Assembly (NCBI GenBank): GCA_964416445.1
Contig: CAYQEE010000002.1
Location: forward strand, 106,691-170,690
Origin: an uncultured Gammaproteobacteria bacterium
Lineage (GTDB): Bacteria; Patescibacteriota; Microgenomatia; Levybacterales; UBA12049
Length of the DNA: 64,000 nucleotides
Direction of reading: 5' to 3'
The notes beneath the pieces are model-generated. The model had not been told where the DNA came from. It made no database searches and worked only from the letters and a program-made list of their open reading frames with translations. How positions within the stretch are numbered: the first letter of the stretch is position 1; the number at the start of each line of letters is the position of its first letter. Below, one piece after another: positions 22,017-54,350 of the stretch. The position numbers and the translations under genes are program-made.

Positions 22017-23702
22017 TTATTCTAATCGTATTTCATGAACTGCAGCTCCACTTGGAACCATAGGAAATACTTTAGTTTCTTTTTTAACTTTTATTTCCAA
22101 AAGATATGGGTTTTTTGATGTAAATAATGTATCCAATGCTTTATCTAAATCACTTCTACGCTCTACTTTTTGTGCGTCGATATAGAATCCTTTTGCCACT
22201 GCGACGAAATCAGGATTTTGTAATTCTACAAAAGAATATCTATTATCAAAAAACATTTGTTGCCATTGACGCACCATTCCTAAAAAATTGTTATTTAAAA
22301 TAATGATTTTTACCGGAATTTGTTCTTGAGCAAGCGTTGCAAGTTCCTGAATATTCATTTGGAAACTACCATCTCCAATTATCGCGATTACTTCTCTATT
22401 TGGAGAGGCAACCTTTGCTCCTAGTGCTGCAGGTAATGCAAAACCCATTGTCCCTGCACCTCCAGAAGTAATAAAACTATCTGGTTTCTGAAATTTATAA
22501 TACCGAGCCGCAATCATTTGATGTTGCCCAACGTCAGCAACAACTATTGCCTCACCTTTGGTCTTTTCAGAAATACGATTAATGACTTCAGCCATAATAA
22601 TTTCGCCTTCTTTCGGATGAATCTCGCTTTCTATTACTTTTTTGTTTTCCTCATTATCATATTTTCTAAACTCGTTAAGCCATTCATCATGCCTATTTGG
22701 TTTACTATAGGAAATTAGTTCTTCAAGAGCAATTTTAGCATTAGATACTATGGGAACTTCAGCCCGAACATTTTTGTTTAGTTCTGCAGGATCGATATCA
22801 ATATGAATTATTTTTGCATGTCGTGCATAATCAGATAATCTTCCTGTCACACGATCATCAAACCTCATACCAACAGCAAGTATCACATCTGCCTTATTAG
22901 TGAGTACATTTGGACCATAATTACCATGCATACCCAACATACCAACGTATAATGGATGACCTACTGGAAAGGCAGATAGACCAAGCAAGGTCGAAGCTAC
23001 TGGAATTCCAGTTTTTTCAACAAATTTCTTTATCTCATTTTCAGCTTTTCCTATGAGAACACCATGGCCAATAAACATAAGTGGACGTTTTGCGGCATTG
23101 AGTAAATCAGATGCTAATTTAATTTGCTTGATGTTGGGTACCAAAGTTGGTTGATAACTTGGAATTCGCATTCGCTTTGGATAAGAAAAATTTAAAAGAT
23201 CTATTTGTGCACTTTTCGTAACATCAATCAATACTGGTCCTGGCCTCCCTGTTTTCGCAATATGAAACGCTTTTGCAAATACTTCAGGTATTTCAGAAAC
23301 TTTTGTAATTTGATAATTCCATTTGGTAATAGGGGTACTAATACCTATAATATCCGCTTCCTGAAATGCATCGGAACCCAATAAATTTTCTGCCACTTGA
23401 CCAGTGATACACACAAGAGGAACAGAATCCATCATTGCATCCATTATCGGAGTAATTAAATTTGTGGCACCAGGACCAGAAGTTACCAATACCACCCCTG
23501 GTTCACCAGTCATTCTTGCATAACCTTCTGCCGCATGTCCCGCACCTTGTTCATGACGGACTAAAATATGTCGAATTTTTTCTTTATAGTCATAGAGTGC
23601 GTCATACACAGGCATGATTGCCCCTCCAGGATATCCAAATATTACTTTTACTTTTTCTGCAAGCAACGATTCGATTATTGCATGCGATCCATTCATTTTC
23701 AT
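22017..23702 (-). CDS. ilvB: acetolactate synthase large subunit (ThDP-dependent)
   Basis: GYPGGAIMPVYDAL, GDGSFQMN ThDP motif. Start set at MKMNGSH (23702), because the longer ORF would run through the attenuator terminator. Confidence 0.9.
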   Translation of the reverse strand: MKMNGSHAIIESLLAEKVKVIFGYPGGAIMPVYDALYDYKEKIRHILVRHEQGAGHAAEGYARMTGEPGVVLVTSGPGATNLITPIMDAMMDSVPLVCITGQVAENLLGSDAFQEADIIGISTPITKWNYQITKVSEIPEVFAKAFHIAKTGRPGPVLIDVTKSAQIDLLNFSYPKRMRIPSYQPTLVPNIKQIKLASDLLNAAKRPLMFIGHGVLIGKAENEIKKFVEKTGIPVASTLLGLSAFPVGHPLYVGMLGMHGNYGPNVLTNKADVILAVGMRFDDRVTGRLSDYARHAKIIHIDIDPAELNKNVRAEVPIVSNAKIALEELISYSKPNRHDEWLNEFRKYDNEENKKVIESEIHPKEGEIIMAEVINRISEKTKGEAIVVADVGQHQMIAARYYKFQKPDSFITSGGAGTMGFALPAALGAKVASPNREVIAIIGDGSFQMNIQELATLAQEQIPVKIIILNNNFLGMVRQWQQMFFDNRYSFVELQNPDFVAVAKGFYIDAQKVERRSDLDKALDTLFTSKNPYLLEIKVKKETKVFPMVPSGAAVHEIRLE

Positions 23703-23728
23703 AAAAAAAATCCCCGCTGTAAGCGGGG
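23703..23728 (-). terminator. ilvB attenuator terminator CCCCGCUUACAGCGGGG-U8, abutting the ilvB ATG
   Basis: Perfect 6-bp GC stem plus 8 U on the minus strand. An alternative pairing is available with the upstream GCGGGG segment (23757-23771). Confidence 0.65.
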
Positions 23729-23763
23729 TTAAGTTTGTTTGCTCCAAGCAATCAAACCCCGCG

Positions 23764-23811
23764 TTAAGGGGTAATGACGACAAGGAGTTTAAGTGTGCTT
23801 TTCAATATCAT
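23764..23811 (-). CDS. branched-chain leader peptide MILKSTLKLLVVITP (ilvB leader, 15 aa)
   Basis: Regulatory run LLVVIT. The stop codon lies inside segment CCCCUUAACGCGGGG. Confidence 0.65.
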   Translation of the reverse strand: MILKSTLKLLVVITP

Positions 23812-23817
23812 ACGTTT

Positions 23818-23846
23818 ATTCTAACAAATAGCGTTTTTGTCGTCAA
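23818..23846 (-). promoter_or_regulatory. sigma70-type promoter TTGACG-N17-TAGAAT for the ilvB leader
   Basis: Hexamers read on the minus strand. -10 ends 6 nt before the leader ATG. Confidence 0.5.
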
Positions 23847-23858
23847 TAAGTGTTTGGA

Positions 23859-23887
23859 TTGACTTTGCTACCCATTAGAAGTAAACT
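23859..23887 (+). promoter_or_regulatory. candidate promoter TTGACT-N17-TAAACT for the suf operon
   Basis: In the divergent ilvB/suf intergenic region. AGGAGGG RBS at 23902-23908, then the GTG start at 23915. Confidence 0.4.
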
Positions 23888-23914
23888 TACACTACATTTT
23901 TAGGAGGGTACTAA

Positions 23915-24181
23915 GTGGAAAATAATACAACTCAAAAAACTCAGCGCTCCCCGTATGTTTTATCTAAATTTGATCTTCTTGGAACAATTTTAGAAGAGTG
24001 TCCAAGGGCAGCAGAATTATTAGCTGAATACGGGTTACATTGTATCAGTTGTTTTGCAAATCAGTTTGATACGTTAGAAATGGGTGCACAAGTACATGGG
24101 ATGACCGATGACGATCTTAACGATATGGTAAATGAAATTAATACTGAATTAGAACTCGAATGGAGACAGGGAAAATTATGA
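23915..24181 (+). CDS. small DUF1858-like protein (CxxC-containing), first gene of the suf cluster
   Basis: GTG start preceded by AGGAGGG. LSKFDLLGTILEECPRAAELLAEYGLHCISC resembles the DUF1858 family. The assignment is weak. Confidence 0.45.
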   Translation: MENNTTQKTQRSPYVLSKFDLLGTILEECPRAAELLAEYGLHCISCFANQFDTLEMGAQVHGMTDDDLNDMVNEINTELELEWRQGKL

Positions 24182-32280: not shown

Positions 32281-33774
32281 TTATCCTATTATTTTACTTA
32301 AACTATCGAGATATGCTCGTACTGTAGCAACAATAATATCGGTATCTGATCCGAAACCATAGAAAACATTACCTTTAAAGGCAATCTGAATATGCACTTT
32401 TCCTATATCATCACTCCCCCCAGTTACTGCCTGAATAAGGAATTCTTCAAGATTCACTTTCTTTTTAATAATTTTATTTACTGCATTAAATGCTGCATCT
32501 ACGGGACCATTTCCTGTCGAACTAGCAATTTCCTCAATTCCATTTACCAATAATTTGACAGAAGCCATTGGATATAAGGGAGTTCCACAAACCACTTCAA
32601 GAAACTCTAATTTTATTCCTGCGTCTTTAATAGATCCTCCCATAAGGATATGCAAATCATTATCATTGACGTCCTTTTTCTTATCTGCTAATGTTAAAAA
32701 TTTTTCATAGATTCCATCTAATTCTTGCGACGTTACTTTATACCCAAGTCTCTCTAAATGATGATTCAACGCAGATCTACCTGAACGTGCTGTCAAGGCT
32801 AGTGAAGATTCATTAATACCAACATCTTTGGGATTTATTATTTCGTAAGTAAATCGATTCTTTAAAATTCCGTTTTGATGAATTCCTGATGAGTGCGCAA
32901 AGGCATTTCTTCCAACAATTGCTTTATTTGCTTGGATTGGCATTCGCATCAATCGTGAGACTAGCCTACTTGTAGGATAAATTTTTCTTGTATTAATATT
33001 CGATAATACCTTGAGATCTTTTCTTGTTTTCATAATCATTACTGCTTCTTCTAAAGAGGTATTTCCTGCTCGCTCCCCCACACCATTTATAGTTACTTCC
33101 ACTTGCCTTGCACCATTTTGAACTGCAGCAATTGTATTAGCAGTTGCCATTCCTAAATCATTATGACAATGAACTGAAACAATAACATTTTCAATTCCTT
33201 TTACATGTTCATAAAGATATTTAATTTTTTCACCAAATTCGTTAGGTAAACAGTAGCCAGTGGTATCAGGAATATTAACAGTTGTTGCACCTGCCTCAAT
33301 TGCTGCTTGGATAAACTTTGCTAAAAATTCATTTTCTGTTCTCCCCGCATCCATTGCAGAAAATTCGACATCTTCCACATATTGTTTTGCATGTTTCACT
33401 GATGCAACTGCTTGTTCCAAGATCTTTTCTCTAGTAGATCGGAATTGATGAATAATATGAATATCAGAACTACTAATAAATGTATGGATTCGTTTATTCT
33501 TTGCAAATTTTAACGATTCAGCTGCACAATCAATATCTGCAGGTATTGCTCGTGATAGGGCACAGATAATTGGCTCTGTAACAACCTTTGAGATCTCTTG
33601 TACAGAATGTAAATCTCCTGGACTTGATATTGGAAATCCAGCTTCAATAACATCTACACCAAGTTCGCTAAGAGCAGTCGCAACTTCAATTTTTTCAACT
33701 GTATTGAGTTGGCAACCCGGTACCTGTTCTCCATCACGTAGTGTTGTATCAAAAATATAAACTTTATCTTTCAT
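32281..33774 (-). CDS. leuA: 2-isopropylmalate synthase
   Basis: [11 protein letters not shown] and HCHNDLG motifs, with a LeuA dimerisation/regulatory C-terminus. Confidence 0.9.
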
Positions 33775-50329: not shown

Positions 50330-52093
50330 TTATTCTAATTCATCAATAATAAATCCTTTAACTTGATGGTCCCACATATTTTTGAAAATTCCGTTAGGCT
50401 TTTTTAATAGTTCATCGGGGTTGCCATCTTCAATTATTTTTCCTCCATCGAGAATAATGATTCTATCCATTTTTTTCAACGTAGATAATCTATGAGCAAT
50501 AGCGATCACTGTTCTATCTTTCATCAACTGTTCAAGAGACAGTTGAATGGCATGTTCACTTTCACTATCAAGGCTACTAGTAGCTTCATCAAGTACAAGA
50601 ATTGGTGCATTCTTAAGAAACGCTCGAGCAATGGCAATACGTTGTCTCTGACCACCGGAAAGTTTTACTCCTCGTTCGCCAACTAATGTTTCATATCCTT
50701 GAGGTAATGAAGAAATAAATCCATCTGCCTGTGCTAACTTTGCTGCATAAATAACAGCTTCATCAGTTGCAAGTGGATTGCTATACCGTATATTCTCACG
50801 AATAGTTCTATGAAAAAGACTCGTGTCCTGAGGGACAAACGCAATCGATAGACGTAAGCTTTCAAGAGTTACATCAAAAATATTCTGTCCATCTATTTTT
50901 ATTGCCCCTGCTTGTACATCGAAATGTCTCAACAACAAAGAAACGAAAGTTGTTTTCCCCGCACCACTTCTTCCAACAAACCCAACCTTTTGTCCTGCAG
51001 GTATTTGAAGTGAGAAATTTTCAAAAACTTGAGTATTTTCGTATTGAAAATCTATTGATTCAACAGAAATTGCCCCTTTTGATAAAACTAAATGAGAAGC
51101 ATGTGGAGCATCCACAATAATATGTTCTTGTAAAATTTCTTCAAGACCTTCTTTTGCTTCACCATAATACCGAGCTGCATCTCGCATTTCTTGACCAATA
51201 AAGAACAATTGCCCTGAAAGATCGCCAACAATTGCAATAACCATCACAATAACGCCAATATTCACAACGTGTATTTGAAATAAATACACAGAAGTCCCAA
51301 TGAGTAGAACCATAATAATAAATATGAAAACTCCATTTACGACGAGCACCCATTCACTGAGTCGCCATCGATCGAAACCTGATTGGCGCTGTTTACTAAT
51401 ATATTTTTTAATGTAATCTCGCTCTCCTGTTACATAGGCATGTTCATGAACTAAAGAAATATTTGACAATGAATCAACAATTCGTCCTTTAAGTGTGGAA
51501 AGAGATTCTGCAAACTGCACTGAATAAGGCTGAAGTTTTCTTGCAAACCAAACATTAATACCAAGAAAAAAAATTGACCAAATACCTATGATTAATCCAA
51601 GCCGCATATCACTAATCCACGCAAAAATAACATACCAACAGAGTCCGATAATGAGGGGTATAAATCGCCATAATATTTTTTCAAAGAGATCATCTGTTCC
51701 GTCTACTGCATTTGCAATCTTGCTTGAGAGAGAGCCAGCAAAACGACTATTAAAATAATCTTTACTATGCAAAGAAATATAATCAAATAATTTTTGATAT
51801 GCAGTCGCTCGTAATCCAGTAAACCAATGCATACCGGTAAAACCACTTGCTCGCCAAAATACCTGGGCTAATAAGAATAATATTGAATATGCAATTGCCC
51901 AGGTCCAAATAGCATCAATACTTAATGGTTGACCTGCAATTGCATCAGTTAAGTTCCGTAGAACAATAACCGTAAAACGATCAACGGCTGTAGCTATGAG
52001 CACAAAAATCAATGCAAAAATTGCCCATTTTTTATGTATTTTTGAAATAAAGTAGGCAAATTGAAGAGGTTTTTTTGGCAGATATTCCTTCAT
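50330..52093 (-). CDS. ABC exporter, fused permease-ATPase (MsbA-like)
   Basis: Six N-terminal TMs, Walker A GRSGAGKTT, signature LSGGQRQR, Walker B ILVLDEATS. Confidence 0.85.
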   Translation of the reverse strand: MKEYLPKKPLQFAYFISKIHKKWAIFALIFVLIATAVDRFTVIVLRNLTDAIAGQPLSIDAIWTWAIAYSILFLLAQVFWRASGFTGMHWFTGLRATAYQKLFDYISLHSKDYFNSRFAGSLSSKIANAVDGTDDLFEKILWRFIPLIIGLCWYVIFAWISDMRLGLIIGIWSIFFLGINVWFARKLQPYSVQFAESLSTLKGRIVDSLSNISLVHEHAYVTGERDYIKKYISKQRQSGFDRWRLSEWVLVVNGVFIFIIMVLLIGTSVYLFQIHVVNIGVIVMVIAIVGDLSGQLFFIGQEMRDAARYYGEAKEGLEEILQEHIIVDAPHASHLVLSKGAISVESIDFQYENTQVFENFSLQIPAGQKVGFVGRSGAGKTTFVSLLLRHFDVQAGAIKIDGQNIFDVTLESLRLSIAFVPQDTSLFHRTIRENIRYSNPLATDEAVIYAAKLAQADGFISSLPQGYETLVGERGVKLSGGQRQRIAIARAFLKNAPILVLDEATSSLDSESEHAIQLSLEQLMKDRTVIAIAHRLSTLKKMDRIIILDGGKIIEDGNPDELLKKPNGIFKNMWDHQVKGFIIDELE

Positions 52094-53837: not shown

Positions 53838-54350
53838 CTACGAAAAGCTATCGATAATTCTTTCTATGCATTGCGTTTGAGATAGTTGTTCCGTGTTCAA
53901 AATAATAGCTCCTTCATAAGGATTTTTTTTAATATTGTCATAGATCTCTTGTAAAGTATCATTGCCAATAGGTCTTCTTATATAATTTGTTGCTTCCACA
54001 CGTTGCGTATCCCGTTCTAAAAGTGTCTGCAGTGAACAAGTTAACTGAAATACTTTTACAGGAATATTACGCTTTTGAGCTTCTTGCGTTGCTTGTCTCA
54101 GAATATCCAGGTGGACATCACGAAATATGCCATCCATAACAACGCTCAATCCATTTTTAAGTAAATACTGCAACACGGGCAGTGAAGTTCTGTAGGCATA
54201 CAGTAACTGTTCCTCCGTTTCTTCTCCAAAAAAATCTTTAAAGTTATCAATTTTTAACCATACTGTTTTCATTTGAAAGTTACGAAATGATTTTGCGAGA
54301 GTAGTTTTCCCACTAGCTGGCGCACCACGAAAAATTATAAGCCGTTGCAT
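53838..54350 (-). CDS. P-loop kinase-like ATPase (AAA_33-like)
   Basis: Walker A GAPASGKTT. Confidence 0.5.
   Translation of the reverse strand: MQRLIIFRGAPASGKTTLAKSFRNFQMKTVWLKIDNFKDFFGEETEEQLLYAYRTSLPVLQYLLKNGLSVVMDGIFRDVHLDILRQATQEAQKRNIPVKVFQLTCSLQTLLERDTQRVEATNYIRRPIGNDTLQEIYDNIKKNPYEGAIILNTEQLSQTQCIERIIDSFS

Follow-up and report, generated by a model that had tools for sequence, protein, structure and literature searches.

Comparative and folding evidence for a probable compact ribosome-mediated attenuator upstream of ilvB in a probable member of Patescibacteria

We analysed a 64-kb stretch of contig CAYQEE010000002.1 (hereafter the window, in which all positions are given) and focused on the short region directly upstream of ilvB, the gene for the large subunit of biosynthetic acetolactate synthase. 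Comparative and folding evidence makes it very likely that this region is a working ribosome-mediated transcription attenuator. It would set the passage of RNA polymerase from the ilvB promoter into ilvB, an ilvN-aminotransferase fusion gene, ilvC, ilvA, and ilvD, depending on how a ribosome moves along a short leader open reading frame (ORF) rich in leucine, valine, and isoleucine (Leu, Val, Ile) codons. The parts of the element and the gene that follows it are:

23846-23841, minus strand: -35 hexamer TTGACG, read from the sequence
23826-23818, minus strand: extended -10 element TG-T-TAGAAT, with TG at 23826-23825 and TAGAAT at 23823-23818
23811-23764, minus strand: leader ORF of 15 codons encoding MILKSTLKLLVVITP, with ATG at 23811 and the TAA stop codon at 23766-23764
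23787-23773, minus strand: regulatory codons CTC CTT GTC GTC ATT (Leu Leu Val Val Ile), read from the sequence
23771-23768, minus strand: segment 1, CCCC, read from the sequence
23787-23742, minus strand: 1:2 'protector' hairpin of the free RNA, in which the regulatory codons and CCCC pair with GGGG...GAUUGCUUGGAG in the minimum-free-energy structure
23762-23755, minus strand: segment 2, GCGGGGUU (core GCGGGG at 23762-23757), beginning 1 nucleotide (nt) past the stop codon
23751-23739, minus strand: upper stem of the antiterminator, UUGCU-UGG-AGCAA, predicted by folding
23730-23722, minus strand: segment 3, AACCCCGCU (core CCCCGC at 23728-23723), the 3' arm of the antiterminator and also the 5' arm of the terminator
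23718-23703, minus strand: segment 4, AGCGGGG (GCGGGG at 23717-23712), followed by A and U8 (T8 at 23710-23703), the 3' arm of the terminator and its U-tract
23702-22017, minus strand: ilvB, 561 amino acids (aa), matching NCBIfam TIGR00118 with 759 bits

An earlier note on this DNA had proposed a TTGACG-N17-TAGAAT promoter on the minus strand upstream of ilvB, a leader ORF containing Leu-Leu-Val-Val-Ile-Thr, three GC-rich segments with the stop codon between CCCC and GCGGGG, and a U-tract running into the ilvB ATG. The promoter agreed base for base, the ORF, the segments, and the place of the stop codon were recovered with the same sequences and coordinates, and the T8 run indeed ends at the nucleotide before ATG 23702. 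In the promoter scan, this promoter scored 10/12 plus an extended -10 element, with a spacer of 17 nt between its two hexamers, and TTGACG or TTGACA is found at the equivalent place in six relatives (L161, L165, L167, L001, L002, and L170). The leader ORF reads ATG ATA TTG AAA AGC ACA CTT AAA CTC CTT GTC GTC ATT ACC CCT TAA, so that Leu, Val, or Ile account for 8 of the 15 residues of its product, including the uninterrupted Leu-Leu-Val-Val-Ile run. Two of the regulatory codons are rare in the long ORFs of the window, where CTC specifies 9% of Leu and GTC 10% of Val; rare codons would be expected at a site of sensitive stalling. Considering that the ORF has no Shine-Dalgarno (SD) sequence and that its ATG lies only 6 nt (AAACGT) past the -10 box (5-19 nt in relatives), it is probably translated from a leaderless transcript starting at or beside the ATG, and leaderless initiation of the leader peptide is plausible on these sequence features.

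With regard to other genes of the window, an SD-like 4-mer was observed upstream of only 6 of 46 long ORFs, and a strong -10-like hexamer lies exactly 6 nt before the start codon in 5 of the 46 (such as 50330-52093 and 53838-54350). These ORF starts hint at frequent leaderless or SD-independent initiation.

The RNA segments can form two mutually exclusive structures. Past the leader ORF and ahead of ilvB, the terminator scan detected an intrinsic terminator, CCCCGCU-UAC-AGCGGGG, with seven pairs (six of them G-C), a loop of 3 nt, and the tail ATTTTTTTT; the hairpin alone has a predicted free energy of -13.0 kcal/mol. It is not the terminator of an upstream gene because the gene upstream of the leader is divergent, being located on the opposite strand and followed by sufC and sufB. 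In the antiterminator, GCGGGGUU (23762-23755) pairs with AACCCCGC (23730-23723), and the hairpin spanning 23762-23723 has a predicted free energy of -18.7 kcal/mol. The same arrangement, with the antiterminator sharing the 5' arm of the terminator, is present in all 16 short-leader sequences (the window and the 15 relatives described below). In the minimum-free-energy fold, segment 1 extends beyond CCCC, as the regulatory codons also pair downstream with GAUUGCUUGGAG, and the 1:2 hairpin and the terminator together reach -33.3 to -33.5 kcal/mol. The fold of the 121-nt leader (-33.5 kcal/mol) is more stable than those of shuffled sequences (-21.7 +/- 3.2 kcal/mol; z = -3.66), none of the 200 shuffles being as good. 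The whole element is compact: the ilvB ATG follows the -10 box at a distance of approximately 115 nt, with the U-tract abutting this start codon.

According to the mechanism that we propose, transcription would start about 6-7 nt past TAGAAT, at or beside the leader AUG, and an SD-independent ribosome would translate MILKSTLKLLVVITP with the polymerase still on the leader. When charged Leu-, Val-, and Ile-transfer RNAs (tRNAs) are ample, the ribosome would reach the last codons and the UAA and cover segment 2; segment 3, being free, would pair with segment 4, and the hairpin together with U8 would end transcription just before the ilvB AUG. With a shortage of any one of these charged tRNAs, the ribosome would stall on CUC CUU GUC GUC AUU, covering segment 1 and leaving segment 2 free. 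Segment 2 would then take the newly made segment 3, aided by the UUGCU/AGCAA stem, with the result that no terminator forms and the polymerase reads through. The read-through form would leave segment 4, the U-tract, and the AUG single-stranded, which should favour SD-independent initiation of ilvB.

To compare the element across genomes, IlvB relatives were identified in genome and metagenome collections by protein search and contig look-ups, and the DNA flanking their genes was read. The same layout was found in 16 relatives whose IlvB proteins are 62-84% identical to that of the window. Fifteen of them (66-84% identity; L161, L162, L163, L168, L081, L165, L167, L001, L002, L003, L008, L170, L169, L004, and L005), which come from separate metagenomes and metagenome-assembled genomes, have an ORF of 14-18 codons and share a -35/-10 pair, an Ile/Leu/Val (ILV) run in this short ORF, a G-rich segment 2, and a terminator. 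A 42-codon version of the leader with a long ILV run was observed in Fluviispira multicolorata (L060, 62% identity). This comparison, which the earlier note had set as its refuting test, thus found the leader ORF and its branched-chain codon run conserved in relatives. The leader peptides include MMKSNLLFSLLVVIIPH, MKLYKSLLLVVITPSRGV, MNRKFAQLIVVLITR, MKNNVLNIVILITP, MKKQFALIVLVVLTS, MNRNFSTIVVLLINPA, MKPNNLGLVILIAR, MYRTGLVIVVEVTP, MEIRTYELVVLAILTP, and MKNQSSVIIVLLINPV, and the ORFs end with an ILV run followed by I/L, T/N, any residue, and the stop codon. Across these relatives, TAA, TAG, and TGA stop codons are all used and the ILV residues are permuted, with frame, length, and spacing kept. 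Fourteen of the 15 short-leader relatives have the start of segment 2 at -1 to +3 nt relative to where the stop codon ends; in L162, a change of TAA to TCA lengthens the ORF to the next in-frame TGA just beyond segment 2, a codon that is also in frame in the window. The 3' arm of each terminator repeats segment 2 and is followed by a run of 5-8 U, a feature shared by all 17 sequences. The upper stem of the antiterminator is present in most relatives with different sequences (UUUUAUUG/CAAUAAAA, GUGAU/AUCAC, and UUUGAUU/AAUCAAA), such that subclades differ in sequence yet stay paired.

The position of the element relative to genes is also informative. In L004, L005, and L169, ilvE is located ahead of ilvB and the leader stands before ilvE, implying that the leader tracks the start of the operon and not ilvB as such. 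In the window, L161, L162, L002, and L008, the U-tract runs right up to the ilvB ATG, and the base of the hairpin is 9 nt from the start codon. In L001, L081, L163, L168, L165, and L167, the hairpin and U-run lie approximately 20-140 nt upstream of ilvB; because of this gap, termination and not masking of the start codon appears to be the conserved function. The metagenome scan with IlvB revealed only one further close relative (L081), the remaining matches being about 60% identical, and none of the loci with IlvB proteins of about 60% identity (the named ones mostly from Bacteroidota) passed the scan for a leader ORF plus terminator within 350 nt upstream of ilvB.

We then examined the predicted switch by folding the leader with a ribosome mask. 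This mask barred pairing as far as 12 nt downstream of the first base of the codon in the ribosomal A site. In full-length equilibrium folding of the window leader, the free RNA forms the terminator with a probability of 0.97, which drops to 0.5-0.6 when the A site is placed on Leu9-Leu10, and the two states are nearly isoenergetic. Considering that this type of folding is ambiguous, as the terminator is still favoured at several stall positions, we adopted folding of truncated RNA, that is, the RNA as present before segment 4 is made. For the truncated window leader, segment 3 is paired with segment 2 with a probability of 0.9 when the A site is on codons 6-13, and with probabilities of 0.1, 0.0, and 0.0 at codon 14, codon 15, and the stop codon, respectively. 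Similarly, in the 15 orthologs the probability that segment 3 is paired falls from 0.8-1.0 on ILV codons to 0.0-0.5 at the stop codon, where it is 0.2 or less in 13 of the 16 sequences including the window. A shorter, 9-nt mask gave the same pattern. When the spacer between the stalled ribosome and segment 3 was shuffled, none of 200 shuffles matched the contrast between stalled and stop positions for the window, and 3% or fewer matched it for 11 of the 15 orthologs (L162 was mis-set in this test, its ORF being longer). The alternative proposed in the earlier note, with the middle segment pairing with either flank to form antiterminator or terminator, is therefore reproduced by ribosome-masked folding in the window and 15 orthologs, and it outperforms shuffled spacers.

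Additional evidence comes from sister elements in the same window. Both strands of the 64 kb were scanned for a signature in which a short ORF (8-35 codons, starting with ATG) ends beside a copy of a terminator 3' arm, this copy lying 20-70 nt upstream of the terminator itself, which had to be a perfect hairpin followed by a U-run. Exactly four loci were detected in the 128 kb of strand, all before amino acid biosynthesis genes. Their codon runs match the operons: Leu/Val/Ile for ilvB, Ile only for ilvA, Leu only for leuA, and threonine (Thr)/Ile for thr. The masking profile is alike in all four elements. Judged from sequence, four codon runs that each match the pathway downstream would be hard to explain other than by ribosome sensing. 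The three further attenuators, and a second type of leader associated with one of them, are:

33923-33786, minus strand: putative leuA attenuator before leuABCD, with promoter TTGACG-N18-TACAAT, an ORF encoding MIKNLLLGLSLLSV from ATG 33884, and the leuA ATG at 33774
19209-19111, minus strand: putative ilvA attenuator between ilvC and ilvA, with the Ile-only peptide MRNVKQISIIAISNRM
43792-43679, minus strand: putative thr attenuator with the Thr/Ile peptide MQHYQYISISITTITQFVWECL and the terminator CCUCCC-AAA-GGGAGG + U7
44069-43803, minus strand: T-box-like leader in tandem, upstream of the thr leader peptide, with a match to Rfam RF00230 at 44028-43834

The leuA leader peptide has 6 Leu among 14 residues, GGCGGGA comes straight after its TAA, and the terminator is CCCGC-GAAGA-GCGGG + U7. 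The ilvA leader contains CGGAAUCUG ... CAGAUUCCCGC-GAAAU-GCGGG + U6 directly before ilvA, whose product is threonine deaminase, the Ile-specific step; a counterpart peptide, MKSKREIIIRISNR, occurs at the same place before ilvA in L170. The thr attenuator abuts the ATG (43678) of an amino-acid-kinase (aspartokinase-like) gene, which is followed by hom and thrC, and its segments are unrelated in sequence to those of the other three elements. Phe_leader also matches this leader weakly, with 34.2 bits (E = 5e-4) against a gathering score of 55. For the T-box-like leader upstream of it, the match to RF00230 reaches 51.4 bits (E = 1.7e-10), short of the gathering score of 93. This second leader is equipped with a separate promoter (TTGACA ... 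TAGAAT) and a separate terminator (CCGCC...GGCGG + U8). In the part that aligns with the specifier side, GGAGGACAACCUGAG, the Thr codons ACA and ACC occur. Attenuators that sense tRNA and ribosomes, respectively, would thus appear to stand in series on one operon, which is an unusual arrangement.

In the ilvC-ilvA spacer of three relatives (L167, 10441-10544; L163, 5826-5943; L168, 5767-5868), we observed a long near-perfect palindrome, ACGTCATTGCGAG ... CTCGCAATGACGT, and no Ile leader; this palindrome may be a repeat element.

Several observations weigh against the attenuator interpretation of the ilvB leader and should be considered here. In full-length equilibrium folding of the window leader, the probability of the terminator returns to 1.0 with the A site on Val11-Ile13. 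Because the equilibrium fold keeps the terminator, antitermination must be kinetic, with the 2:3 pairing formed before segment 4 exists, as in the classical model. In addition, the free truncated RNA of the window already prefers 2:3 over 1:2 (probability 0.84), so that termination of an untranslated leader is not clearly predicted for the window; such termination is predicted for six orthologs (L168, L165, L167, L001, L004, and L005; 2:3 probability 0.05-0.31). The GCGGG/CCCGC/GCGGG cores are invariant among orthologs, hence the key pairs provide no formal covariation, and RNAalifold on a MAFFT alignment yielded no consensus structure for the antiterminator region, the alignment being poor (a fixed-length pseudo-alignment of the leaders was put out of register by MAFFT). 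Promoter-like hexamer pairs are not enriched in the window over shuffles of this A+T-rich DNA (73 found versus 78.6 expected), and the ilvB promoter call thus rests on its position and its conservation in relatives and not on the match alone. The leader ORF lacks an SD sequence, its transcription start is predicted from the position of the -10 box, and in L008 the sole matching ORF begins with GTG 7 nt past the -10 box, a poor leaderless start. Finally, codon mutations in the ilvB leader of Streptomyces coelicolor were without effect on regulation (reported in PMC1262725), and a conserved leader ORF is therefore no guarantee of classical attenuation.

Four other explanations were weighed against these data. 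The hairpin of segments 3 and 4 might block ribosome loading on ilvB, with the leader ORF opening it through translational coupling and termination being secondary or absent. Its closeness to the start codon in the window and the four relatives with an abutting U-tract would fit this explanation, as would the rarity of SD sequences (6 of 46 genes), given which structure at the start codon should matter. However, in six relatives the hairpin and U-run lie approximately 20-140 nt upstream of ilvB, so that the conserved unit is a terminator and not a start-codon sequester, and 5-8 U follow a G+C-rich stem in all 17 sequences; we consider this explanation improbable. The element could also be switched by an RNA-binding protein, uncharged tRNA, or a metabolite, with the short ORF being incidental or serving for tuning only. 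The T-box-like leader before the thr operon indicates that tRNA sensing is present in this genome, and the S. coelicolor codon changes would agree with such a role of the ORF, but the ilvB leader is approximately 110 nt long and has no T-box or riboswitch match. Moreover, the nucleotides of the ORF vary among relatives whereas its frame, length, ILV composition, and stop-to-segment-2 spacing are kept, which is the signature of a translated sensor, and the four elements of the window carry different, operon-matched codon runs. We assign a low probability to this possibility.

Since promoter, short ORF, and terminator together make up a complete small gene, and the weak Rfam matches are to terminator-ended small RNAs, the short transcript might instead be a product itself (a hydrophobic micropeptide or a small RNA) that merely lies upstream of ilvB. 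This appears very improbable: no second promoter separates the terminator from ilvB and, with the U-tract in contact with the ATG, transcription of ilvB has to pass the terminator; the peptide, at 14-18 residues, is not long enough for a membrane span and keeps its ILV composition but not its order; and the element stands before whichever gene opens the operon, as L004, L005, and L169 show. Chance pairing of an A+T-rich ORF with an ordinary terminator, which the unenriched promoter-like hexamers and the commonness of ILV codons in A+T-rich DNA might suggest, is effectively refuted by the conservation in 16 relatives, the fold and spacer shuffle controls, and the finding that the four scan loci lie only before matching genes. 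Attenuation by a translating ribosome remains the interpretation that we prefer.

We also compared the ilvB leader with known systems. Rfam leader families (Leu_leader, Thr_leader, His_leader, Trp_leader, and Phe_leader) represent the same class of cis-regulatory leader. The scan with Rfam leader models suggested in the earlier note did not identify any of them: with Rfam 15 models at gathering score, the whole window gave only tRNA and no leader family. At E <= 10, the best match in 23600-24000 was anti-hemB (24.3 bits, gathering score 49.5), again with no leader model at gathering score; the weak alignments in this region, to Trp_leader RF00513 (17.1 bits, gathering score 41) and Phe_leader RF01859 (14.7 bits, gathering score 55), cover mostly the terminator. 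T-box leaders are the usual control of ilv-leu genes in Bacillus, and no T-box or riboswitch match was found in 23600-24000 even at E <= 10, the ilvB leader being only about 110 nt long. The leaders of the ilvBN (ivbL) and ilvGMEDA (ilvL) operons of Escherichia coli are classical ribosome-mediated attenuators. Like them, the ilvB leader has a short ORF with a Leu/Val/Ile run, a U-tract terminator before the first structural gene, and an antiterminator that uses the 5' arm of the terminator, and stalling on the regulatory codons would similarly lead to read-through. In contrast to them, its ORF is half as long (15 codons versus about 32), it lacks an SD sequence and has virtually no 5' untranslated region, it places the U-tract in contact with the start codon some 115 nt from the -10 box, and its host is most likely not a proteobacterium; sequence similarity to them was not detected with Rfam leader models. 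The ilvB leader follows the same logic as known leaders and is not a sequence member of a curated Rfam family, and the earlier note's comparison with proteobacterial ilv leaders holds in this sense.

Published examples of leader-peptide attenuators include those preceding ilvB or ilv operons in Actinobacteria (PMC1262725, PMC11857589) and one upstream of ilvD in Staphylococcus aureus (PMC5794164). The actinobacterial leaders (in Corynebacterium, Mycobacterium, and Streptomyces) resemble the present one in having short Ile/Val/Leu ORFs beside terminator hairpins upstream of ilvB(N)C, and they were likewise found outside Proteobacteria by comparative genomics (PMC1262725, PMC11857589). However, they are high-G+C leaders, their ORF overlaps the terminator hairpin, and the three-hairpin model is debated for C. 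glutamicum, whereas the leader of the window has its stop codon ahead of segment 2 and a clean separation in the 1-2-3-4 scheme. The S. aureus ilvD leader (PMC5794164) shares with it a low-G+C genome, a peptide with Ile/Leu codons, a conserved terminator, and a predicted antiterminator. It differs in its 26-residue peptide, its ribosome-binding site 9 nt upstream, and a terminator 52 nt past the stop codon; in addition, the S. aureus antiterminator pairs with the poly-U tail, whereas the one described here competes for the terminator 5' arm, and segment 2 adjoins the stop codon.

The window has a G+C content of 34.7%. Relatives of its FtsH protein (8045-6168, minus strand) with 73-82% identity, deposited by several independent submitters, are labelled Candidatus Levybacteria/Levyibacteriota, Microgenomates, or Patescibacteria group, and the IlvB relatives carry the same kind of labels, including a 762-kb chromosome of Levyibacteriota (CP066685.1). 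The NCBI taxonomy places Levyibacteriota within the Microgenomates group of Patescibacteria. Judging by these labels of its nearest relatives, the host is most likely a Levybacteria-like member of Patescibacteria and neither a proteobacterium nor a firmicute. Patescibacteria are usually described as reduced symbionts with little amino acid biosynthesis, and to our knowledge almost nothing has been described of how they regulate their genes. In the window, the ilv, leu, and thr operons look complete and are accompanied by avtA, ilvE, and suf genes, and such full operons are unexpected for a lineage regarded as biosynthetically poor. Operons gated by leaders would argue for regulated prototrophy and for coupled transcription and translation that does not require SD-led initiation. 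The mechanism itself is a textbook one and offers no new principle; the value of the present case lies in the lineage, the small size, and the set of four matched attenuators.

It is possible, and we put it forward tentatively, that a Levybacteria-like member of the candidate phyla radiation (CPR) makes its own Ile, Leu, Val, and Thr under the control of compact, SD-independent, and probably leaderless attenuators, four of them within 25 kb and one in tandem with a T-box, and that this represents the first ribosome-mediated attenuation in the CPR. A literature search returned no paper joining CPR/Patescibacteria with leader peptides, attenuation, or T-boxes, its coverage being incomplete and no proof of novelty. 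If true, this would make a case for tight coupling of transcription and translation in the CPR and would provide a simple sequence signature for amino acid-responsive regulons in uncultured lineages; the signature, a stop codon abutting a copy of the terminator 3' arm, may be used to map such regulons in metagenomes.

Regarding the operon itself, its genes are arranged in the order ilvB, ilvN-aminotransferase fusion, ilvC, ilvA, and ilvD. We take ATG 23702 as the ilvB start because the TIGR00118 match begins at residue 3 of the 561-aa product. The ilvB frame is open upstream through the attenuator, and the ORF list of the window contains a 588-aa version (23783-22017). This longer ORF, which would start at TTG 23783 and cover the leader, was rejected, as the profile and all orthologs start at MK(M/I/K)xG, corresponding to ATG 23702. 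Called ilvB starts upstream of the ATG used here were also observed in L161 (910-2625, 571 aa) and L170 (2501-4228, 575 aa), and lengths of 571-602 aa are listed for several further IlvB relatives of the protein collection; extended ilvB annotations may often conceal the leader. The gene following ilvB is:

22014-20326, minus strand: ilvN-aminotransferase fusion, 562 aa, with Pfam domains ACT_AHAS_ss and ALS_ss_C at residues 7-161 and a class I/II aminotransferase domain at 201-554

The same fusion is present in L167 (7688-9388, 566 aa) and probably in L161, where a 555-aa gene follows ilvB, whereas other relatives have a separate ilvN of 157-172 aa.

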